Source: Candidatus Limnocylindrus sp. (GTDB taxonomy: Bacteria > Chloroflexota > Limnocylindria > Limnocylindrales > Limnocylindraceae). From it: a DNA stretch of 64,000 nt. The notes under the pieces are model-generated. The model did not search any database, was not told the DNA's origin, and saw only the letters and a list, made by a program, of their open reading frames with translations. The position numbers and the translations under genes are program-made. Positions 49,359 through 62,028 of the stretch are shown here, in pieces (position 1 is the first letter of the stretch; the number at the start of each line of letters is the position of its first letter). The stretch spans positions 45,673-109,672 of the forward strand of contig JBBAWM010000004.1 of NCBI GenBank assembly GCA_040397175.1, in the 5' to 3' direction.

Positions 49359-50837
49359 CTACGGCGTGACTGGTGGGCCTTCGTTGAGGTGACCAGCAAC
49401 TGGCCCAAAGTATTGGGCGAGCCAGGTCTTGGTACACGTTACCGTTGCGGCAAACTTTGCTGGCGTTGGCGAGAATCGCATGTTCCCTCCGGCAAGCACG
49501 CACTTATGCAGGCTGTCGGTCCCCCCAGACATCAAGAGCGACTTCCAACCACCTGCCGCATCGGGACCGATCGCGAGTGCGGGCTGTGCATGGGCAATCA
49601 CGCCATAGATTGCCGCGACGTTGGCGCGCGTGATCGTGCCGCGCACCAGTGGTGGACCCTTGCGATACCAGCGCAGGTCCATGAGCGAGGCGAGTGTTGC
49701 GGCCTTGAATGGGCCATCAGCGCCCTGCTCTAGGAGTCGCAGGGTGATCCCCGCCACGATCCGCTGGTGCCGGAGTGCGCGTGGCCCAACGTCGTCGTAG
49801 TAGCGCGCGCGGCTAAAGCCGGTCCAGAGGTTCGTCGGCACCTTGAAGGCGCAGCTAATGTTTCCCGCTGCGCTCAGCGCCGTATCGAGCGGGCATGAGG
49901 CGTTGACGAAGTACGGACTCGTGCTGCGTACGCTCTTCGTGGTGGCGGGCTCCTTGCAATCGGCGTAACTCCAACCGTTGACCCTGCTCCCCGGATAATT
50001 ATCAGCCTTGCCTGGGCGCAGATAGAGTAGGTCGCCATACACGGCATCCGATGAGAGCTCATGGTCGCCAAAGGAGGCGCCAGCACCCTTCGTCTTGCGG
50101 AGCGTGTTCTGACGACAGCTGGCGAAGCGGGTGCGATCGTCGAGGTGCACGATGGTGTCGGCAGGTGCGATGGAGTCGAGCATGGCGCCCATAAAGTCTG
50201 CGGTGCCGAAGGTGCTTAGCGTCCAGTCATCGATCTCAATGCCGAGCGCCCAAGAGAAGTTCTCGGCGACCATGCTCGCAGCGACGATGCTGCGCTCCCA
50301 GGCTCGCTTCTTATCCCACGATGCCTTCTGCGTTGCGTTCATGGTGGCGCGCACACACTGTTGGGCGCGCACGAAGAGGGCGTTGATCTTGTCGGTGAAG
50401 GTCTTGGAGCCAGCGCGGCAGAACCCCTTTGCGAGCGATGGTTTGAGTGGGAACCCATAGAGGTCGCGCGGAATGCTATAGGCGGCGGTTTGGCCACTGA
50501 ATGAATCCACGGTGAGGAGCATCATCACGTCGGTGCGCTCGGAGCCGAGCTGGTCCTGGGGAACCTTTGCCGTTGCATCGTTCGCAGCCGACCAGGTCCA
50601 GTCCGGTGCACCAACGCTCCCCTGGGCACAGCGCTCCGCGGTCTTGTCCATCAGCGAGCCACCGCACCGCTTGTCGCTGCCGAGGAAGAGGAGCGTGTAG
50701 CGGCCGTCGGTACCGAGCACGTTCGTCGGCGTGGCGGCCACTGGGCTTGGCGGCGTACTGGCCCACACGAGGGTGACGGCGAAGATCGTCGCCAGCAGGG
50801 CGACCGCGAGTGCGTACGGGCGAGCGGTACGCGCCAC
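49359..50837 (-). CDS. Divergent Cys-rich LCP-family protein with an N-terminal signal/anchor
   Basis: LFLGSD, ERTDVMML, SIPRD, KINA and SRAR..D...R..RHQ motifs. The GTG start overlaps the fabG stop. Confidence 0.75.
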   Translation of the reverse strand: MARTARPYALAVALLATIFAVTLVWASTPPSPVAATPTNVLGTDGRYTLLFLGSDKRCGGSLMDKTAERCAQGSVGAPDWTWSAANDATAKVPQDQLGSERTDVMMLLTVDSFSGQTAAYSIPRDLYGFPLKPSLAKGFCRAGSKTFTDKINALFVRAQQCVRATMNATQKASWDKKRAWERSIVAASMVAENFSWALGIEIDDWTLSTFGTADFMGAMLDSIAPADTIVHLDDRTRFASCRQNTLRKTKGAGASFGDHELSSDAVYGDLLYLRPGKADNYPGSRVNGWSYADCKEPATTKSVRSTSPYFVNASCPLDTALSAAGNISCAFKVPTNLWTGFSRARYYDDVGPRALRHQRIVAGITLRLLEQGADGPFKAATLASLMDLRWYRKGPPLVRGTITRANVAAIYGVIAHAQPALAIGPDAAGGWKSLLMSGGTDSLHKCVLAGGNMRFSPTPAKFAATVTCTKTWLAQYFGPVAGHLNEGPPVTP

Positions 50838-51586
50838 TACATCATCACCAGGCCACCGTCGACGCCGAGCACCTGCCCGGTAACGTACGAGGCCTCGCGC
50901 GATGCAAGGTAGATCACCGCGGCGGCGATCTCGTGCGGCTCGCCGAAGCGGCCGAGCGGGGTGGCCGTCTTGACCCCCTCCTTGATTGCCTCAGGGAGAT
51001 CGGCGGTGAGTTCGGTGACGATGAAGCCTGGCGCAACCGCGTTCACGGTGATGCCACGGCTGGCAACTTCGCGGGCGGTGGCCTTGGTGAGACCGATCAT
51101 GCCAGCCTTCGCCGAGCTGTAGTTCGCCTGGCCGGCGTTCCCCGCCTGGCCCGAGACGCTCGTGATGTTCACGATGCGACCACTCTTGGCGCGCAGCATC
51201 TCCTTCACGGCGGCCTTGGTCATGTAGAAGGCGCCCGAAAGATTCGTGTCGATGACCTCGCGCCACTGCTCTGGCGTCATGCGCAAGATCAACGTGTCGC
51301 GAGTGATGCCGGCGTTATTCACGAGCAGGTCGACCTTGCCGAAGCTCTCCATTGCCTTGGCGACAACGGCGACGGCGCTGTCGGGATCGGCGGCGTCAGC
51401 CTGGAGCGCTACCGCCTTGCGACCCTTGGCGGTGATCTCGGCGACCACGGCGTCGGCAGCAGCAGTGTTCCCCTTATAGGTAATCAACACGTCGGCGCCA
51501 GCGTCGGCGAGGGCAACCGCAATGGCGCGACCGATGCCTCGGGCGCCTCCGGTCACGATCGCGGCGTATCCGTTGAGTTCAAACAT
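50837..51586 (-). CDS. fabG: 3-oxoacyl-ACP reductase
   Basis: TGGARGIG, NNAGITRD, GQANYSSAK and VDGG motifs. Confidence 0.95.
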   Translation of the reverse strand: MFELNGYAAIVTGGARGIGRAIAVALADAGADVLITYKGNTAAADAVVAEITAKGRKAVALQADAADPDSAVAVVAKAMESFGKVDLLVNNAGITRDTLILRMTPEQWREVIDTNLSGAFYMTKAAVKEMLRAKSGRIVNITSVSGQAGNAGQANYSSAKAGMIGLTKATAREVASRGITVNAVAPGFIVTELTADLPEAIKEGVKTATPLGRFGEPHEIAAAVIYLASREASYVTGQVLGVDGGLVMM

Positions 51587-51626
51587 GGAACCTCCTCTGT
51601 TGAGACTGTTGTCGCTAGTGTCGCGC

Positions 51627-52808
51627 TTAGCGGCCCTTTGCGTCTAGCAGTGCCTTAAGCGCCGCTGGCACCTCGGCAGCCTTCGCTCCCTCCTCGGGGC
51701 GCTTGATCTTGATCGTGCTCGGGTCAACCGCAGCGGCTCGCGCGCCGTGGGCTGGGTCTGCATCCCATCGCGTGACAAAGGCACCCGAGGTGTAGCCGCC
51801 GCCAAAGGCGACGGTGCAGAAAACGTCGCCCGGCTTCAGTCGGCCCGCAGCCACCGCCTCGGATAGCGCGATCGGGATGCTCGCGGCGGAGGTGTTCCCG
51901 TAGCGGTCGAGGTTGACGAAGATCTTCTCCATTGGATAGTCGATCGCCTTGGAGACGTGTTCGATGATGCGCAGGTTTGCCTGGTGTGGGATCACCAGAT
52001 CCACCTCAGAAACGGTGAGGCCGGCGCGCTCAATCGCCGCCGTTGCGACCGCTGCCATGGTCCGCGTGGCGTAGATATACGTCTTCGCCCCATCCATCTT
52101 GATCAACGGATCCGCATCGGCGCCTGATCCTCCTGGGATCCAGAGTGCGAATGCACCTGATGGATCGGCGGAGAGTTCGAAGCTGAGCGTGCCAGGGCGC
52201 GTGGCGATGTTCTGATCCTCGCGCAGGTCGAGTGCGTCGAGCACGATCGCACCCGCACCGTCGCCAAACAGCACGCAGGTAGAGCGATCGCTCCAGTCAA
52301 CAACGCGCGAGAGGGACTCCGCGCCAATCACCAAGGCGCGCTGACCGAGGCCGGCGGTGAGGAAGCCGTGAGCGACAGCGTAGGCGTAGGCGAATCCGGA
52401 GCAGGCGGCAGAGAGGTCAAAAGCGGCGGCGCGATGGCTGCCGATCGCCTCCTTGATCAGCACCGCGGTGCTTGGCATCGGGTGATCCGGTGTGAGGGTA
52501 GCCACAACGATCAGGTCAACGGAATCTGCCGAGACGCCAGCGACGGCGAGCGCGCGAGCGGCGGCGATTGCGCCCATGGAGGCGGTGGTCTCACCATCAC
52601 CGGCGATGTGTCGTTCACGGATGCCGGTGCGCGTGCTGATCCATTCGTCACTCGTCTCTACGATCTGCTCAAGGTCGGCGTTGGTGAGGACTGCCTGCGG
52701 TACCTCGTGCCCCCAACCGACGATGTGGGTCGTGCGATTCGGCAGCGCCGCTAATCCGCTTTCGCCACCGATTCGTGTTGCGTCGCCGTCTGTCACCGGC
52801 CCGCTCAT
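51627..52808 (-). CDS. fabH: Beta-ketoacyl-ACP synthase III
   Basis: WI..RTGI.ER, AACSGF, LFGDGAGA, PHQAN.RI and GNTSAAS motifs. Confidence 0.95.
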   Translation of the reverse strand: MSGPVTDGDATRIGGESGLAALPNRTTHIVGWGHEVPQAVLTNADLEQIVETSDEWISTRTGIRERHIAGDGETTASMGAIAAARALAVAGVSADSVDLIVVATLTPDHPMPSTAVLIKEAIGSHRAAAFDLSAACSGFAYAYAVAHGFLTAGLGQRALVIGAESLSRVVDWSDRSTCVLFGDGAGAIVLDALDLREDQNIATRPGTLSFELSADPSGAFALWIPGGSGADADPLIKMDGAKTYIYATRTMAAVATAAIERAGLTVSEVDLVIPHQANLRIIEHVSKAIDYPMEKIFVNLDRYGNTSAASIPIALSEAVAAGRLKPGDVFCTVAFGGGYTSGAFVTRWDADPAHGARAAAVDPSTIKIKRPEEGAKAAEVPAALKALLDAKGR

Positions 52809-53587
52809 GCTGGCTCCACCTCGATGATCGGCGACTTCGCCTTCACGAGCAGCCCATCCTGGGCAATGATGCGCACAACCCGACCCGCCTTGTCGCTCTT
52901 GATCTCATTGAAGAGCTTCATCGCCTCGATGAGGCCGATCGGCTGGCCAACCGCCACGATCGAGCCGACGGAAATAAATGCTGGAGCACCCGGAGATGGG
53001 GCGGCGTAGAAGATGCCAGTAAGCGGCGCATTCACCACGGGGCCGCTCGGTGCTGCGGAACTCGCTGTCGCGGCGGGCGCTGGCTTTGTTCCCGTTGGGA
53101 GTGGCACCGACGCGACACTCGCTGTCGTCTGCGGCGCGGCTGCAGCCGCCACCACCACGTGGCTCCCCTGCACCGCACTCCGGCTGCGCACCACCACGCG
53201 CGTCCCACCCGCGGAGAGCTCCACTTCGGCGAGGCCACTCCCGTCGGCAACGACGGCGAGGCGGTCGATGATCTCAATCAGGGCGGCATCATCACTCGTC
53301 AGTGGTAGGTTCGCTGGCAGTCGTACACCGGCACGGCTCTCCCCCTTGCGTGGTCGCGGCGGCGTGTTCGGCACTGGAGCGACTGCGCCAACCGGCAGCG
53401 CGCTCTCGATAAGGCGTGACGGGTCTCGTGGCGCGAGCCGTTCGATCGCCGGGGTCGACGGCGGCGTCACCTCACTCAGTGGTGCAACCTCAGCTGCGTC
53501 GCCACGCGCGCGGCGCGCCGCATCACGCGCCGCCTCAAGGGCACGACGTGCCCCCTTCTGGAGTCGTACGCGACGCTTCTCGGGCAT
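52805..53587 (-). CDS. accB: Biotin carboxyl carrier protein with a long N-terminal extension
   Basis: IEAMKLFNEI biotin site and thumb FYAAPSPGAP. The ATG overlaps the fabF stop (TAATG). Confidence 0.9.
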   Translation of the reverse strand: MPEKRRVRLQKGARRALEAARDAARRARGDAAEVAPLSEVTPPSTPAIERLAPRDPSRLIESALPVGAVAPVPNTPPRPRKGESRAGVRLPANLPLTSDDAALIEIIDRLAVVADGSGLAEVELSAGGTRVVVRSRSAVQGSHVVVAAAAAPQTTASVASVPLPTGTKPAPAATASSAAPSGPVVNAPLTGIFYAAPSPGAPAFISVGSIVAVGQPIGLIEAMKLFNEIKSDKAGRVVRIIAQDGLLVKAKSPIIEVEPA

Positions 53588-54861
53588 TAGCGACCCTCCC
53601 ACTTCGCAAAGAGGAGTGCTGAGTTCTGCCCACCGAATCCGAAGGCGTTGACTAGCGCCAGGTTCACCTGCTGCGCAGCGGGGGCACCCGTAACAATGTT
53701 GAGGCCAGCCGTAGCTGGATCTGGTGCGGTGAGATTCAACGTTGGATGCACGCGGCCGTCGCGCATGGCGCAGATCGTGGCAATGGAGCCGAGGCCACCA
53801 GCGGCGCCAAGGGTGTGACCGATGGCGCCCTTGGTGGCGGTGACGCTGGCACGCGAACCCTCACCAAGGATCGTGCGAATCGCTTCAAGCTCCGCCTTGT
53901 CGCCCTCAGGGGTTGAGGTGGCATGCGCGTTGACGTGATCAATGTCGGCGCCAGTGCGACCCGCCTTCGCCAGCGCACGACGTGCTGCGCGAACAGCTCC
54001 AGAGCCGCCAGGGGCTGGCAGGGTGATGTGCAGTGCGTCGGCGGTGGCGCCATAGCCAACAAGTTCGGCAAGCGGGGTTGCACCGCGCGCGAGCGCTACA
54101 TCGAGTCGCTCCAACAGCAGAATTCCAGCACCTTCGGCCATCACGAATCCATCGCGACCGCTATCGAACGGACGTGACGCGGCGGCGGGGTTGCCCCCCG
54201 TTGCTGAGGCCCCGCTGCGCGAAAGCGCACGCATATTGTTGAACCCAGCAATCACGACGGGGTGGAGCGCCGCCTCGGTGCCGCCCGCGAGTGCCACGGT
54301 GGCATCGCCGCGGCGAATCATCTCGTAGGCCTCACCAATCGCGTGACCGGCGGTGGCGCAGGCGCTCACAGCACCAAACGATGGCCCTTGCGCACCAACA
54401 TGAATCGCCACTTCGCCCGAAGCCATATTGCCGATGGCGGCGGGGACCAAGAAGGGCGAGATGCGGCCGGCACCGCGTTCGGCGAAGACGGCGGCCTGCT
54501 CGAAAATCGTGGTGGCACCCCCCAAGCCCGATCCAATGATGGTGGCCACACCCTCCGACGACTCACCGGTGGCGAAGCGCGGCGGGAGCCCCGCGGAGGC
54601 GAGTGCCTCTGCGGCAGCGGCGATGGCGAAGTGCGTGAAACGATCGAGTCGCTTGATCTGCTTCGGCTCAAGCACGTCCGACGGATCGAAGTCGATCGCC
54701 TGTCCGCCGAAGTCGACCTCTTGGCCGGTCAGGTCGAGCCCCTGCAGCGCGCGAACACCAGAGCGCCCGGCAAGAAGGCCATCCCAGAGCGCGGCGACGC
54801 CACGGCCGAGCGGTGAGACCGCCCCCATGCCCGTAACGACGACGCGCTGCTCGTTGCTCAT
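53587..54861 (-). CDS. fabF: Beta-ketoacyl-ACP synthase II
   Basis: RVVVTG.G, SACAT, HATST..GD, K...GH.LGAAG and N.FGFGG.N motifs. Confidence 0.95.
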   Translation of the reverse strand: MSNEQRVVVTGMGAVSPLGRGVAALWDGLLAGRSGVRALQGLDLTGQEVDFGGQAIDFDPSDVLEPKQIKRLDRFTHFAIAAAAEALASAGLPPRFATGESSEGVATIIGSGLGGATTIFEQAAVFAERGAGRISPFLVPAAIGNMASGEVAIHVGAQGPSFGAVSACATAGHAIGEAYEMIRRGDATVALAGGTEAALHPVVIAGFNNMRALSRSGASATGGNPAAASRPFDSGRDGFVMAEGAGILLLERLDVALARGATPLAELVGYGATADALHITLPAPGGSGAVRAARRALAKAGRTGADIDHVNAHATSTPEGDKAELEAIRTILGEGSRASVTATKGAIGHTLGAAGGLGSIATICAMRDGRVHPTLNLTAPDPATAGLNIVTGAPAAQQVNLALVNAFGFGGQNSALLFAKWEGR

Positions 54862-55607
54862 CGCACCAGCTTCCCCGTGCGCAGCGTTGCTGCGCGATAT
54901 GTGTCGCCGGTGAGTGCTCGCGCGGTGATTGCGTCAGCGACCTTCTCGGTGTCGTAGCTGGCGCGGTAGACCTCGGCGTTGATCGTCTTCTCCTCGGGAT
55001 CGATGTCGATCACGGTGAAGGCGGCGGTGGCATCGCCGTCGTACGGCATGCCAACGGAACCGGCGTCAACGAGCACCTTCCAGCCGTAATCTTTCACGCG
55101 CGCGGAGTGTGTGAAGCCCACGCAAACAACGCGTGAGTCGGTCTGGCCGAGCAGCTCGAGCGTTGTCGATGGGTCAAGGTCAGCGCTCAGCGGAATGGTG
55201 CGCGAGCCAGGCGAGGCGTGGCAGAAGGTCACCGCAATCTCGCCGTAGCGAATGCGTCGCTCGCTCGGCAGCGAACGGAGCCACTCGATGCGATCGTCGT
55301 CAAGGGCATCCGATGTCCACTCAACGGCAGCCTTTAGTCCTGGTGGCAGGCCACCGGCGAGGCTCGGAAACGAAGCGGCGTAGTCAAGATCGGACACAGC
55401 GATGTCACCGGTGCCCGCGGTCACGAGGGCCCCCTTCTTCTGCAGCTGCTGAATCAGGTCGATCGTTTCGGATGGCTGCGGCCCGAAGAGGGCGTGATCG
55501 CCAAGGATCGCGACCTGATCGGGCTTCAGGGCCGGGAGTCGCGCCACGACCGCCTCGAGTGCCGCGAGGTTGCCATGGATGTCGGAGAGTACGACGACGC
55601 GCTTCAT
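54858..55607 (-). CDS. Calcineurin-like metallophosphoesterase homologue with degenerate metal ligands
   Basis: SDIHGN, LGD, HASP and GSVG.P.DG are present, but GTGD replaces GNHD and GFTH replaces GHTH. Confidence 0.8.
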   Translation of the reverse strand: MKRVVVLSDIHGNLAALEAVVARLPALKPDQVAILGDHALFGPQPSETIDLIQQLQKKGALVTAGTGDIAVSDLDYAASFPSLAGGLPPGLKAAVEWTSDALDDDRIEWLRSLPSERRIRYGEIAVTFCHASPGSRTIPLSADLDPSTTLELLGQTDSRVVCVGFTHSARVKDYGWKVLVDAGSVGMPYDGDATAAFTVIDIDPEEKTINAEVYRASYDTEKVADAITARALTGDTYRAATLRTGKLVR

Positions 55608-55620
55608 ATCTTTCCCTTCA

Positions 55621-56093
<473 letters not shown>

Positions 56094-56097
<4 letters not shown>

Positions 56098-57470
56098 ACA
56101 CGGGCCTTCGGCGCGGCGGCCAAGATGTCGGCGGTGCCGATGGCGTCGAGCATGCCAGTGGTGGCGGTGCCGTTCAAGAACGATGGTGTCTCGAGGAGGC
56201 CAAGGAAGAAGTCGCGCGTCGTGGCCACGCCGCCAATCTCCACCTCGCGCAGTGCGGCGCGTGATCGCGCGATCGCCTCTTCGCGGGTGTTCCCCCACAC
56301 GATCAACTTGGCAAGCAGGCTGTCGTAATACGGCGGCACCTCGTAGCCGGCGTAGAGATGCGAATCGAAGCGCACCCATGGGCCGCTTGGCGAACGGAAG
56401 GTGGTGATCTCGCCCGCCTGCGGTCGGAATTCTTGTGCTGGATCTTCGGCGGTGAGTCGGAACTCAATCGCGTATCCGCGGCGCTCGATCTGCTCCTGCG
56501 TAAATGGCATCAGATCACCTGCGGCGAGGCGAATCTGCAACGCCACGAGGTCCACCCCCGTCACCGCCTCGGTCACCGGATGCTCAACCTGAATGCGGCA
56601 GTTGATTTCAATGAAGTACGGCTTCCCATCGGCGCCAACCAAGAATTCGAGGGTGCCGAGATTGCGATAGCCGGCGGCGCCGATCGCCTTCGCGGCACGC
56701 GCCAAGAACTCCTCGCGAACCTTCGGGGTGAGCGCCGTTGACGGCGACTCTTCGACGAGCTTCTGGTGCCGACGCTGTACCGAGCAGTCGCGCTCGCCAA
56801 AATGCAACGCCGTGCCCGCCTTGTCGACGGCAATCTGCACCTCAACGTGGTGCGTGTCGATTAGGTATTTCTCGAGGTAGAGCGAGCCGTCGCCGAATGC
56901 CGCCTGCGCCTCTTGCGTGCAGAGCGAGAAGAGGTGCGCCAGATCGTCGGCGCTCTGGATGACGCGCATGCCGCGACCGCCACCTCCCGCCGAGGCCTTC
57001 AAGATGACCGGATAGCCAATCTTCGCCGCGGCCTTTGCCGCCGCCGCCTCATCGGCGACCACTCCGTCGGAGCCAGGAATCGTTGGCAGGCCGTGCTTCG
57101 CCAGGAGCGCGCGCACCCCCGCCTTGCTCTCGAAGCGCTCCAGCACCTCTGCAGATGGACCAATAAAGGTGAGCCCGTGCGCGGCGGCGGCCTCGGCAAA
57201 GGCGGCGTTCTCCGACAGGAAGCCGTAGCCCGGGTGGATGGCATCGCAGCCGGTGGCGAGCGCCGCTGAGATCACCGCTGGTGCCGAGAGATAGCTGCGC
57301 TTGGCGTCGGCGGGACCGATGCAGATCGCCTCGTCGGCAACGAGCACCGCGCGCGATTCGCGGTCGGCCTCGCTAAAGGCAACGACCGCCTCGATGCCGA
57401 GCTGGCGGCAGGCGCGCAGGATGCGCAGCGCAATCTCGCCACGGTTCGCAATGAGCACACGCTTGATCAC
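56094..57470 (-). CDS. accC: Biotin carboxylase
   Basis: IANRGEIA, HPGYGFLSEN, GGGGRGMR, RDCSVQRRHQK, IQVEHPVTE and YDSLLAKL motifs. Confidence 0.96.
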
Positions 57471-57937
57471 AACTTCCCCTCGCCAACCGACTCAAGCAAG
57501 AAGAGCTCCTGGCCGTACTCCACTGGGTCGCCGGTCGCACAGCGCAGCTTCGCCACGATTCCAGCGTGGTCGGCACGCACCTCTACGGCGACACCGAGCA
57601 CATCAACGGTTGCAACGAGTGACCCCTTCGCAACCTTGCCGCCCACGTGAATATCGGGGGCCAATTTCACGAAACCCACCGCGGTGGAGTGCACCGGATG
57701 GCGGCGCTCATCGGCGGCGCTCGGCGCCGTTGCTGTGGCAGATGACGTTCCCCCGCGTGCTGCTGTAGGCGCCGGGATCGGTGCAACCGGCGCGCCAAGA
57801 TCTTCCGCACGGACGCGCACCGTGGTGCCATCGCGCTCCACCTCGATCTCCCCCAGTCCTGTCTCATGGAGTCGCTCCACGAGCACGGGAAGGAGTGAGT
57901 CGAGCAGCTCGCTGATTCGCTCAATGTTCTGCGGCAT
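57467..57937 (-). CDS. BCCP paralogue lacking the biotinylated lysine (BADC-like)
   Basis: AccB-type N-terminal segment (GL.EIE....G..VRVR) and biotinyl-domain pattern (V.S..VG; G..V..G; V.AD..G.V; GDPVEYGQ.L), with DVLG in place of EAMK. Confidence 0.8.
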   Translation of the reverse strand: MPQNIERISELLDSLLPVLVERLHETGLGEIEVERDGTTVRVRAEDLGAPVAPIPAPTAARGGTSSATATAPSAADERRHPVHSTAVGFVKLAPDIHVGGKVAKGSLVATVDVLGVAVEVRADHAGIVAKLRCATGDPVEYGQELFLLESVGEGKL

Positions 57938-57940
57938 CAG

Positions 57941-59920
57941 TTACGCCCCTGCACTATTGCGCTCGATCTCATCGAGCCACTCATCGTTGACGCCAGCTGG
58001 AACCTTGTCGCGGCTCATGCCGAAGATGGAGCGAATCGTACCGACGAGACCCTTCTTGGTTGTCGGGGCTTCATCAAAGGCACCGTAGGCGCGATAGCGC
58101 GCATACCGCGCGTCGAGCAGCGCGTTCAAGTCGCTCATGGATTCCAGCTCGTCGAACGTTGCGGAAACCTTCTCCCACATCGCGCGCGCCAAGGTCACGG
58201 TAGATTCGGCGGAGAGCGTCTCGGGTTCGGCGATGATGCCGTCGACGACGCCGAGGGCGACCTGCTCTGGCGCGGTGATGCGCAGGGCGCGTGCCGCAGC
58301 GGGCGCCTTCTCGGAGGTGCGGAACAAGATGGCGGCACACCCCTCCGGGCTGATCACCGAGTAATAGGCGTGCTCAAAGGCGAAGACGCGATCGGCGGCG
58401 GCAATGGCCAGCGCGCCGCCCGAACCACCCTCGCCCGTCACCACGGTGACGATTGGAGTGCGCAGTTCGGTCATCTTGCTGATGGCGGCGGCGATCGCCT
58501 CGGCGATGCCGTGCTGCTCCGACTCAGGACCTGGGTGCGCACCTGGGGTGTCGACCAGGGTGAGGAGCGGCAGGTGCAGGCGCTCGGCAAGCTCGAAGCC
58601 GCGCATCGCCTTGCGGTACCCCTCCGGGTGCGGCATGCCGAATCCACGGCGAATGTTGCTCTCGGTGTCGGTCCCCTTCTGGGTGCCAACCACCACAATG
58701 CGTCGCCCATCGATGCGCGCGATGCCCGCAACGATCGCGCCGTCATCACCGGCGCGTCGATCGCCGCGCAGCTCTACAAACTCAGCGCCAAGCGCCTCAA
58801 GCAGTTCAGCAGTTCGTGGTCGGTTCACCTCGCGGGCGCGCTGCACGTGGCTCCACGCCTCCGCCTCGTCGAGGTGTGGCCCGAGTTCTGGCGCCAAGTG
58901 TCGGTCGCGCTGATTTTCGAGAATCTGGTCAGCGCGATTCGCCACCTTGCTTGCGGCGTCGGCAACGGGTGACAACACTGAGCCGATCATCGCGCCAGCG
59001 CCCTGCGCCACGCCGGTGACCATGCCGCCAATCAGGCCAACGCCAGGAATGCCGATCTGTCGATAGAGCGGTACCGCTGGTGCAGGAAGTGGCTGCAAGA
59101 GTCCAAGTGCGCGCGTCAGCCAACCGCGCAGATTGCCGCGCGGCACGATCGCATCAATGAAGCCGGTCTCGAGCAAGAACTCGCTGCGCTGGAAGCCAAC
59201 GGGGAGTTCATCGCCAATGGTGCCAGCGGAGACGCGCGCGCCACTGAAGCCGATCAGTGCATTCGGTTCGGCAACGTTGAGGTCTCCGAGGGCGCCGAAC
59301 GAGGCGATGGTGCCGCCGGTAGTTGGATCGGTCAACACGCTAATGAAGGTGCCGCCACTCAACTTGAGGCGTGCGATGGCGGCGAGGGTCTTTGGCAGCT
59401 GCATCAGCGCGTAGGTCCCCTCTTGCATGCGGGCGCCGCCCGATGCCGAGACGATCACCAGTGGGAGGCGGCGGGCGGTGGCGAGTTCGGCGGCGCGGGC
59501 AACCTTCTCGCCGACGACCGAGCCCATCGAGCCACCCATGAAGAAGAAGTCCATGGCGACGAGGGAGACCTCGATGCCGCCAATGAGGGCGGTGCCGCGG
59601 ATGGCGGCGTCGCGCTCGCCGGTGGTGGCGCGGGCGGCGGCGGCCCGCTCGGGGTATCCCTTGGAGTCGGTGAAGACGATCGGGTCGAGCGAGATCAGGC
59701 TGGCGTCGGCCTCGATGAAGGTGCCCTCGTCGACCAGCTGCGCAATGCGCTCGCGGGCGGGCACACGAAAGTGATGGCCGCAGGCCGCGCAGACCTGCAG
59801 GCTCTTCTCCAAGGTCTTCTTGAAGAGGAGCTCTGAACACCCGGGGCACCGGACCCACAAATCGGGCTCGGCTCCGGGGGTCGCCTTGCGGCGTTTGAAC
59901 GGGTTCCGAAAGCTGGGCAT
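57941..59920 (-). CDS. accD: Fused acetyl-CoA carboxylase carboxyltransferase beta+alpha (AccD-AccA)
   Basis: The N-terminal half has the C4 zinc finger, F.GGSMGSVVGEK and SGGARMQEG. The C-terminal half has FGMPHPEGYRKA, DTPGA, GEGGSGGALA and YSVISPEGCA. Confidence 0.93.
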   Translation of the reverse strand: MPSFRNPFKRRKATPGAEPDLWVRCPGCSELLFKKTLEKSLQVCAACGHHFRVPARERIAQLVDEGTFIEADASLISLDPIVFTDSKGYPERAAAARATTGERDAAIRGTALIGGIEVSLVAMDFFFMGGSMGSVVGEKVARAAELATARRLPLVIVSASGGARMQEGTYALMQLPKTLAAIARLKLSGGTFISVLTDPTTGGTIASFGALGDLNVAEPNALIGFSGARVSAGTIGDELPVGFQRSEFLLETGFIDAIVPRGNLRGWLTRALGLLQPLPAPAVPLYRQIGIPGVGLIGGMVTGVAQGAGAMIGSVLSPVADAASKVANRADQILENQRDRHLAPELGPHLDEAEAWSHVQRAREVNRPRTAELLEALGAEFVELRGDRRAGDDGAIVAGIARIDGRRIVVVGTQKGTDTESNIRRGFGMPHPEGYRKAMRGFELAERLHLPLLTLVDTPGAHPGPESEQHGIAEAIAAAISKMTELRTPIVTVVTGEGGSGGALAIAAADRVFAFEHAYYSVISPEGCAAILFRTSEKAPAAARALRITAPEQVALGVVDGIIAEPETLSAESTVTLARAMWEKVSATFDELESMSDLNALLDARYARYRAYGAFDEAPTTKKGLVGTIRSIFGMSRDKVPAGVNDEWLDEIERNSAGA

Positions 59921-59950: not shown

Positions 59951-60769
59951 CTATGGGATGGCGATCCGCACGACCTTGGTCACTTCGCCCGCCAAAATGG
60001 CACGCTCCGTGCCGTTCACGCTCAGAATCAGCGCCCCCGTGGCCCCGTCGTGCCCAACGACGATCCCCGAGAGGATCTCCCCAGCCCCCACCTCGAGGTC
60101 TACCGAGCAGCCCTCGAGCAACTGCCGCGAACGCCAGTCAGCCACATCGAACCGCCCGTCGGCCAGGGCACCTAGGCGCCCCTCGAGCCGCGCCACGGCA
60201 TCGGTAAAGAGCGCCTCGCGATCGATCGGTCGACCTGTCGCAATCTCCAAGCTCGTCGCCGTTGCAGAGAGTGCGGGATCCAGCTTCGACACATCGCCGC
60301 GCACATTCAGTCCCAGGCCAACAATCAGCCAGGCGTCGGTGCTACCGGCATCGCCCGCCTCGGCCAACACGCCGCCTACCTTGCGAAAGCTCTGGGTCAC
60401 GCCCCCCTCGATGTTGCGCACGACCAAGTCATTCGGCCACTTCAACCCAACGGTGCCAATCTGCATGCCTGCGGCATCTTCAATCGCGTCGGCAACCGCC
60501 AACGAGAACTCGGCGGCAACGCGCCACCAGCGATCAGCATCTGTCGGCAGCGCCGAGCCAGTGCCAGCGCGCATCGCAAGGCTCATCAGCAGGCCGGTGC
60601 CCGGCGCGTCGAGCCACGTGCGGCCGCGACGACCGCGGCCAGCCGTTTGTGTTTCGGCGCGAATCAGCAGGGGCGAATCGGCGGCAACGAGCCCAGCAGT
60701 AAGTCGCTCACGTGCGACGTCGTTGGTCGAGGTGACTTCGGTGAGTCGCTCAACTGCGATGTTTTTCAG
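59951..60769 (-). CDS. birA: Biotin-[acetyl-CoA-carboxylase] ligase without an HTH domain; probable CTG start
   Basis: KWPND, KVGGVL and G.GLN motifs. The frame stays open upstream of ATG 60586 and encodes STND and QTAGRGRRGRTW. Confidence 0.88.
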   Translation of the reverse strand: MKNIAVERLTEVTSTNDVARERLTAGLVAADSPLLIRAETQTAGRGRRGRTWLDAPGTGLLMSLAMRAGTGSALPTDADRWWRVAAEFSLAVADAIEDAAGMQIGTVGLKWPNDLVVRNIEGGVTQSFRKVGGVLAEAGDAGSTDAWLIVGLGLNVRGDVSKLDPALSATATSLEIATGRPIDREALFTDAVARLEGRLGALADGRFDVADWRSRQLLEGCSVDLEVGAGEILSGIVVGHDGATGALILSVNGTERAILAGEVTKVVRIAIP

Positions 60770-60774
60770 AAAAC

Positions 60775-62028
60775 CTACTCCGCGTCGACGGCGTCTGGCG
60801 TTGCAAGATCAAACGTGTCGTGCAGCGCCTGCAGCGCGTGTGGCGCGTCGGATTCACTGACGATGCAGGTGATGCGAATCTCCGAGGTAGAGATCATCTG
60901 AATGTTGATCTTTGCATCGGCGAGCGTGCCAAACATGCGCGCGGCGTAGCCCGGCGCATTCTGAATGCCCGCGCCAACGATCGAGACCTTTGCAACGCTC
61001 TCATCAATCTCAAGGGCACGAGCGCCGATCGACGCGCGAATCTGTTCCAAAACAGGGCGCGCAGCCGCGAGATCAGCGCGTGACGTGGTGAACGAGAGGT
61101 CGGTAGTGCCATCGTGAGAAACGTTCTGCACGATCATGTCGACGTTGATGTTTGCCGCCGAGAGCGGATCGAACACCGCGCGCGCGATGCCGGGCTTGTC
61201 GGGCACGGCAACCATGGTCACCTTTGCCACCTTCGTATCGGCCGCCAGGCCGCGAACCTTATTGCGCTTCTCCACCTGCGTATCCTCCTTGATCACCGTG
61301 CCTGCGTGCTCCTCAAATGAGCTGAGCACCTCGATTGCCACGTTATTGACCCAGCCGAGCTCCACGGCGCGGGTCTGCATCACCTGGGCCCCCTGGTTGG
61401 CGAGCTCCAGCATCTCTTCGTATCCGACCACCGAAAGCTGACGGGCGGCGGGCACGGCACGGGGGTCGGCGGTGTACACCCCACGCACGTCGGTGAAGAT
61501 CTGGCAGCGATCGGCTCCCAGGGCTGCAGCCAGCGCCACCGCCGAGGTATCGGAGCCGCCACGGCCGAGGGTCGTGGTCTCTGAGCCGTCGCTCACCCCC
61601 TGGAAGCCCGCAACGATCACGACCCGGCCAGCGTCAAGTTCGGCGCGCACTCGCTTCGGTTCGATACCGGCGATGCGCCCCTTGCCATACGTACCGTCGG
61701 CGCTGATCCCCGCCTGGGCGCCGCTCAGCGACACCGCATCGGTGCCACGCGCGATGAGCGCCATGGCGAGCAGTGCCGCCGATTGAATCTCGCCCGTTGC
61801 AAGGAGTGCGTCTTGTTCGCGCGCGCTCGGAAGCGTGCCGCCCGTTACGGACGATGCCAACGCCAACAAGTCGTCGGTGGTGTCGCCCATGGCGGAAACA
61901 ACGGCAACAACATCACGTCCCGCGGCGCGATCGCGGGCGATGCGCGCAACAACGGCGGCGATGCGCTCAACGGAGCCGACCGAACTTCCGCCGTACTTTT
62001 GAACGAGCAGCTTCGACGACGCGGTCAC
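60775..62028 (-). CDS. lysC: Aspartate kinase
   Basis: VQKYGGSSV, VVSAMG, TLGRGGSDT and DV.GVYTADP motifs; two ACT domains. Confidence 0.95.
   Translation of the reverse strand: MTASSKLLVQKYGGSSVGSVERIAAVVARIARDRAAGRDVVAVVSAMGDTTDDLLALASSVTGGTLPSAREQDALLATGEIQSAALLAMALIARGTDAVSLSGAQAGISADGTYGKGRIAGIEPKRVRAELDAGRVVIVAGFQGVSDGSETTTLGRGGSDTSAVALAAALGADRCQIFTDVRGVYTADPRAVPAARQLSVVGYEEMLELANQGAQVMQTRAVELGWVNNVAIEVLSSFEEHAGTVIKEDTQVEKRNKVRGLAADTKVAKVTMVAVPDKPGIARAVFDPLSAANINVDMIVQNVSHDGTTDLSFTTSRADLAAARPVLEQIRASIGARALEIDESVAKVSIVGAGIQNAPGYAARMFGTLADAKINIQMISTSEIRITCIVSESDAPHALQALHDTFDLATPDAVDAE

Follow-up and report, generated by a model that had tools for sequence, protein, structure and literature searches.

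The systems closest to the locus described here are known from plants, from E. coli and from a few other bacteria, and we draw on them as far as the accessible parts of the cited papers go. In the heteromeric acetyl-CoA carboxylase (ACCase) of plants, BADC proteins are homologues of BCCP (AccB), the biotin carboxyl carrier protein, that lack the biotinylation motif (PMC11926652, PMC12706156); PMC11926652 gives their identity with BCCP as 25-30% and calls them a feature of the plant heteromeric enzyme only. Some accounts present them as inhibitors and others as assembly glue (PMC11926652, PMC12706156, PMC11889953, PMC12873504, bioRxiv 10.64898/2025.12.30.697075), the plant proteins being reported as glue in PMC11926652, and badc2 badc3 is embryo-lethal (PMC12706156). 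The E. coli enzyme has a non-catalytic BCCP site, contacted by BCCP residues V88, P145, E147 and F148: V88 and F148 pack on V49, I51, P53, A65 and I72 of biotin carboxylase (BC), E147 pairs with K8 of AccD, P145, M121 and M123 enter hydrophobic clusters, and it is mainly through M121 and M123 that BCCP contacts the AccD:BC interface (PMC11160672 supplement). For E. coli, a barrel of BCCP N-termini has been predicted, which would retain the carrier (PMC11160672), and in Chloroflexus a barrel of N-terminal BCCP hairpins assembles BC (PMC11077971). AccE (epsilon), a non-catalytic subunit that aids assembly, belongs to the actinobacterial acyl-CoA carboxylases (PMC11926652, PMC3199775).

We analysed a 64,000-nucleotide stretch of a Candidatus Limnocylindrus genome (the window), which carries an operon in the order birA, accDA, a lysine-less BCCP paralogue, accC, fabZ, a metallophosphoesterase gene, fabF, accB with an EAMK hairpin, fabH and fabG. 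Unless stated otherwise, all the features given below lie on the minus strand (-). The biotin ligase gene birA (59951..60808) has a frame open to 60808, and its start codon is not settled: the frame continues for about 70 codons 5' of the first ATG, up against the lysC stop, and offers no ATG, GTG or TTG start in that stretch. Family scans identify the accD-accA fusion (57941..59920) as a carboxyltransferase with a zinc finger; accD and accA are fused in the window's genus and in some genomes of family f2, and separate in other f2 genomes and in families f3 and f4. The accC gene for biotin carboxylase (56094..57470), whose start overlaps the stop of the paralogue, is followed by fabZ (55621..56097, predicted start), a calcineurin-like metallophosphoesterase gene to which we assign no role (54858..55607) and fabF (53587..54861), all three named from family scans. 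In families f1 and f2 the metallophosphoesterase gene has fabZ on one side and fabF on the other; in f3 it was not found at this place. The fabH and fabG genes (50837..52808) were named from sequence.

The catalytic-type AccB (52805..53587), whose ATG overlaps the fabF TAA, has an EAMK hairpin and an intact thumb Tyr. Its gene lies 3.9 kb downstream of the paralogue, in agreement with the normal accB placed about 4 kb away in the initial annotation. This AccB has a basic, Pro-rich N-terminal extension of about 95 aa (53300-53587), which opens with an Arg/Ala-rich segment conserved in three relatives of the genus (L057, L058, L060). In an AlphaFold model of AccB alone, the N-terminal module has a pLDDT of 83-86, and the barrel, at about 50, is unusable for a surface comparison.

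A scan for promoters and terminators gave counts at or below chance. Three metatranscriptome runs contained 0.06-0.17 of the sampled words, and in one of them, X1, a 533-nt contig with 5 differences covers 57642-58174, including the junction of accA and the paralogue; such contigs reveal neither transcription nor strand and do not count as evidence here. Elsewhere in the genome, about 2 kb outside the window, there is a stand-alone lipoyl domain with an intact hairpin lysine (G000:C4:42772-43804, +), and the frame after it resembles the catalytic part of a dihydrolipoyl acyltransferase, suggesting a split or frameshifted E2 gene. A second fatty-acid locus (G000:C1:196444-199989, -) holds fabD and two more fabF-like genes.

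The paralogue itself (57467..57937) encodes 156 aa. Its ATG stands 3 nt past the accDA TAA, and its TGA is shared with the accC GTG as GTGA (57470-57467). The Pfam Biotin_lipoyl family (PF00364) matches it with 34.2 bits against a cut-off of 22.1, and TIGR00531 scores 49.9 bits over residues 19-149, below its cut-off of 115.2, a value that the window's true AccB, at 108.5 bits, likewise does not reach. Its best sequence match in the PDB is E. coli BCCP (4hr7_B). A GTGA-coupled protein of 156 aa with BCCP layout between accDA and accC, as first annotated, is thus borne out by the reading frame, the Pfam match and the 4hr7_B alignment. The predicted model begins with a helix (residues 3-26) and two strands (30-35 and 38-43), a putative assembly module (residues 3-43, 57809..57931) homologous to the AccB N-terminus; a disordered linker then leads to a biotinyl-type barrel with a shortened thumb (residues 79-149, 57491..57703). 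The barrel is modelled with a pLDDT of about 96 for residues 81-150 and superposes on 4hr7_G with Z 12.8 and an rmsd of 1.2 Å over 71 residues, so that it has the biotinyl/lipoyl fold of AccB. Between the paralogue and the window's AccB the identity is 27%. Their N-terminal segments, GLGEIEVERDGTTVRVR and GLAEVELSAGGTRVVVR, align (hhalign probability 98.2 over 150 columns) and both are predicted to be helix-strand-strand, upholding the shared N-terminal segment of the initial annotation.

What the paralogue lacks is the means of carrying biotin. Its hairpin, D112-V113-L114-G115 (57593..57604), aligns with E119-A120-M121-K122 of E. coli BCCP in 4hr7_B, which places G115 at the biotin lysine K122. 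The thumb is 6 residues shorter and Tyr92 is lost. Of the 14 lysine-less rows from Limnocylindria, 13 have a thumb stretch of 12 residues and one has 10; its length is 18 in every one of the 62 lysine-bearing rows. The earlier description of a hairpin without lysine and of a lost thumb loop stands. Both the E-A-M-K biotin lysine and the thumb loop with conserved Tyr/Pro of AccB are absent, and because the lysine is absent the paralogue is not an AccB. With Gly in place of K122 and DVLG in place of EAMK, it would be unable to serve as a biotin carrier, and the absent lysine predicts that it is non-biotinylatable. We also considered a lipoyl carrier and rejected it: the hairpin has no lysine, and the best matches are BCCPs of acetyl-CoA carboxylases, with lipoyl domains scoring lower. 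PF00364 has three matches in the genome, namely the paralogue, accB and the lipoyl domain outside the window, and a search of the ESM Atlas returned Chloroflexota Biotin_lipoyl clusters only, with no named family.

The initial annotation had raised the concern that orthologues might retain MK. The paralogue query matched 57 of the 61 genomes of the order, the four misses being 71-82% complete. Reading the orthologue in 54 of the order's genomes gave no case of MK; one (L030) is cut at the hairpin, and the lysine is found in 0 of the 53 readable hairpins. EAMK is present in all 25 copies of AccB that were read at these loci. In two more families of the class, 18/18 and 2/2 genomes have accA followed downstream by a lysine-less copy, with fabD and other genes separating it from accC in the two-genome family. 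Across Limnocylindria the lysine is kept in 0 of 73 genomes with a readable hairpin. The hairpins of the best 120 protein-search matches and of the best 150 representatives all end in LG, and the lysine is absent from 390/390 of the database matches listed.

The 27 orthologues of the genus all have a Gly codon at the lysine position. Among them the median dN/dS, taken over pairs that are not independent of one another, is 0.14 for the N-terminal module (279/351 pairs past the dS filter), 0.18 for the barrel (332/351) and 0.40 for the linker (166/351). V87, G88, V139, E140 and Y141 of the barrel are invariant. The paralogue is under purifying selection. Taken together with the 0/73 count, this speaks against decay, and the conserved paralogue of the initial annotation is upheld. 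A decaying duplicate or a sequencing error, an idea to which the 27% identity to AccB and the long branches in our trees might lend some colour, is refuted: the frames are open and free of internal stops in all order-level matches, the lysine codon has been replaced by one for Gly throughout the genus with dN/dS far below 1, the predicted fold is confident, and the gene is present in 32/32 high-quality genomes of the order (a tally that may include cross-matches to AccB).

The same values bear on the idea that the gene persists only because of its N-terminal module, which would space oligomers or autoregulate acc transcription, and that the barrel is a passenger. The module does have the lowest dN/dS, and residues 1-68 of E. 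coli AccB repress accBC (PMC11160672, from the accessible part). The barrel, with its five invariant residues, is nearly as constrained, and we hold this explanation to be very improbable.

The phenomenon extends beyond the class. Our wider survey, of a kind the initial annotation had suggested, began with a profile run against 401 genomes from the phylum and went on to a reading of the loci; TIGR00531 was then run on 51 genomes hand-picked from the profile matches, 49 of them outside Limnocylindria. A fabF-type AccB with MK occurs in 31 genomes outside the class. Of these, 30, belonging to 17 families, also have a lysine-less copy that was read; in the 31st (G112) a second match is present and was not read. 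Another 12 genomes, from 10 families, showed no fabF-linked copy at the loci read, and their copy at the efp/xseA slot keeps EAMK. The other six of the 49 genomes fit neither pattern and stand outside these counts: G292 has two MK copies whose neighbours were not identified, G188, G068, G165 and G364 have only weak MK matches of other carboxylase types, and G081 has no TIGR00531 match. The lysine-less family spans much of Chloroflexota, and the pairing of a lysine-less with a catalytic BCCP is a real, conserved feature on the scale of the phylum.

At the position of the lysine these copies have G, N, Q, R, A, M, H or S. BADC proteins have a D-x-x-G hairpin, and the hairpins outside the class include QSLN, EALQ, EVLR and EIMM, so that D-x-x-G is no hallmark there. 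QSLN-type copies occur in Dictyobacter aurantiacus (L154) and other named Ktedonobacteria, among them species of the cultured hosts Dictyobacter, Ktedonosporobacter and Tengunoibacter, and a search with this type found the lysine missing in 120/120 of the matches listed. One candidate member, L135, was rejected, its hairpin being EALK with the lysine kept. Some genomes have extra lysine-bearing BCCP-like genes of other types (L250 and L251 of family f40; L257, L270 and L293 of family f51), one of those in f40 lying beside a second accC. An AccB on a 3-kb contig of family f10 (L196, G312:C32) reads as proteobacterial and is possibly a contaminant of the bin.

Outside Limnocylindria the lysine-less copies lie mostly at a pepP-efp-BCCP-xseA slot; those of family f9 (L197, L313) are away from both efp and acc genes, and a glycerate kinase gene lies near that of L197. 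Since most copies beyond the class sit between efp and xseA, and since birA is in the same operon in the window, the paralogue could be imagined to serve something other than ACCase, acting as a biotin ligase decoy, carrying a different cofactor or partnering with EF-P or XseA. In 10 families this efp slot belongs to a lysine-bearing AccB, which indicates instead that the neighbourhood is inherited. In 6/6 Limnocylindria checked, no BCCP lies between efp and xseA, xseA following directly after efp, and the gene is found between accA and accC instead. The hairpin offers no lysine to biotin or lipoate and the residue there varies freely, and BirA has no space for an N-terminal DNA-binding domain. 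A role outside ACCase therefore appears very improbable to us, and a partnership with ACCase, in some role, very probable.

Evidence on what that role might be comes from the docking residues of the E. coli non-catalytic site, as given in the accessible part of its description. By alignment with 4hr7_B, the paralogue has counterparts of all four: V87 (57677..57679) corresponds to V88, which contacts biotin carboxylase, and P138-V139-E140-Y141 (57515..57526) to P145-V146-E147-F148, which dock on AccC and AccD. At the positions of V88, P145, E147 and F148 the window's AccB has Thr, Leu, Lys and Ala. This division holds across the alignment. The lysine-less rows keep V88 (44/44), E147 (44/44), Y/F148 (44/44) and, less often, P145 (26/44), a retention that is partly built in, since the profile that found these rows has an invariant VEYG and a VEYGQ pattern served to pick the 21 outgroup rows; the loss from the catalytic fabF-type AccB rows (V88 0/29, E147 5/29, Y/F148 0/29, P145 0/29) is not built in. 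The biotin lysine is present in 0/44 lysine-less rows versus 29/29 fabF-type rows, and the thumb Tyr92 in 6/44 versus 28/29. The 12 single-type rows from the efp slot keep both the docking residues and the lysine and thumb set. The alignment rows are kin and not independent events; the two copies are nevertheless complementary in the residues they have lost. M121 is kept in 29/29 catalytic rows and is Leu in 38/44 lysine-less rows, so AccB may still dock in part. The AccC of the window, closest to 8hz5 (which we take to be the stand-alone BC2 of Chloroflexus aurantiacus), keeps I49, I51, P53, P64 and A65 at the docking site and has Ala for Ile72 and Leu for Glu71; the AccC side of the site is largely kept.

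Based on these findings, we propose an acetyl-CoA carboxylase of five subunits, in which the paralogue is probably the non-catalytic anchor. V87, P138, E140 and Y141 would hold the lysine-less copy to the N-terminus of AccD and to the non-catalytic site of AccC, while the fabF-linked AccB, which retains biotin and thumb, would shuttle between the active sites. The homologous helix-strand-strand modules at the two N-termini would join both copies in a mixed barrel, by which AccB would be tethered through its twin. The coupling to accC would set the ratio of paralogue to carboxylase, and the paralogue would be needed for efficient activity rather than being mainly an inhibitor. Of the extra non-catalytic carrier subunit first suggested, the real and conserved paralogue stands; an additional carrier is too narrow a description, since the docking residues lost by AccB are kept here. 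More tentatively, and at somewhat below even confidence, the BCCP of much of the phylum Chloroflexota could be an obligatory pair, in which a lysine-less anchor and a biotin shuttle unable to dock alone are joined by the mixed barrel, an independent bacterial version of the BADC principle. The reading leans on E. coli structures, and these ACCases may or may not form tubes of the E. coli kind.

The anchor has to be weighed against a negative or conditional regulator, which would bind AccC or replace AccB in the N-terminal barrel and so leave fewer biotin-bearing carriers, as in the inhibitor model under which BADC was first described (PMC11926652, PMC12706156, in the parts accessible). The docking surface and the N-terminal module that the paralogue has kept would serve such a protein equally, and outside Limnocylindria the gene lies apart from fab and acc genes, where separate regulation is possible. 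At the docking site there would be little to compete for, AccB itself being without V88 and F148; the stop-start coupling to accC suits a fixed ratio; and the paralogue is retained in a 1.38 Mb genome (91.5% complete) in which we found no PII gene. We regard a regulator as unlikely, and keep the anchor subunit as our preferred reading.

We suggest only a plausible history for the two copies. In an LG+G4 tree of bacterial rows (106 rows, 108 columns, hairpin columns removed), all 29 rows of fabF-type AccB group in a single clade (100/99), the lysine-less copies of Limnocylindria (14 rows) are nested with 22 lysine-less rows from the efp slot (98/93), and the lysine-less rows of the free tree fall into two separate clades of 36 and 8 rows. 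In a mixture-model tree, made with 61 of the 106 rows and with the docking columns also removed, five Limnocylindria rows (f1-f3) stand on a long branch among catalytic copies (90/95, unstarred). A single origin of lysine loss is not rejected with 106 rows (p-AU 0.41), and with 61 rows (p-AU 0.58) the constrained tree is 1.9 log-units better than the free one. The placement of the Limnocylindria copies is thus unstable between models and, since these are short proteins with little signal, the history is not settled. It may have begun with a duplication in Chloroflexota, after which each copy took over one of the two functions that a usual BCCP combines; in Limnocylindria the gene would then have left the efp-xseA slot for the acc operon, a relocation that the empty slot fits.

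If the anchor subunit is real, this natural dissection would show what the non-catalytic BCCP site is for, and plant BADCs would be predicted to act as glue by occupying the same site. The role of a structural subunit without the lysine was previously described only for plant BADC proteins in the literature seen, as far as its accessible parts go; with five gene products, the dispute over BADC as inhibitor or glue could be tested here, and the Chloroflexota pair also tests the purpose of the E. coli non-catalytic site. Since several databases label lysine-less copies as ordinary biotin carboxyl carrier proteins, annotation or expression of these ACCases would take the wrong carrier or omit a subunit. 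The initial annotation called the arrangement apparently undescribed in bacteria; in agreement with this, the searchable literature, of which coverage is partial and which does not establish absence from print, gave no account of a bacterial lysine-less BCCP, and the accessible parts of PMC3199775 and PMC11439503 hold nothing on such copies.

Among the known systems, E. coli AccB (TIGR00531; PDB 1BDO, 4HR7, 8UXZ) shares with the paralogue the helix-strand-strand N-terminus, the Ala/Pro linker and the biotinyl barrel, together with V88, P145, E147 and an aromatic residue at 148; the paralogue differs in having neither K122 nor Y92, in DVLG for EAMK and in its shorter thumb. AccE has been described as a small helical protein of subunit interaction, unlike this BCCP paralogue with a biotinyl barrel, and family scans gave no AccE match for it. 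The BC1 (fused BC-BCCP) and BC2 of Chloroflexus aurantiacus belong to the same phylum and share the N-terminal BCCP barrel, although the carriers in the accessible part of their account (PMC11077971) are lysine-bearing only. The closest likeness is to BADC1-3 of plants and algae. Like them, the paralogue is a BCCP homologue without biotin motif, its 27% identity comparing with 25-30% there (accessible text), and has folded domains and a disordered linker alongside a catalytic BCCP in a heteromeric ACCase. Unlike the nucleus-encoded BADCs of the plastid, it is bacterial, without a transit peptide, and encoded in an acc operon or at the efp slot; its setting differs also in that the window's genome yielded no PII gene. 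A catalytic partner without the docking residues is seen in Chloroflexota. In both trees the sole cyanobacterial AccB included (L164) falls outside the Chloroflexota copies, and the grouping of the paralogue with Chloroflexota BCCPs away from it makes an independent origin likely, as judged from bacterial rows only. By analogy, then, the paralogue is likely to be a bacterial analogue of BADC rather than an established member of that family.
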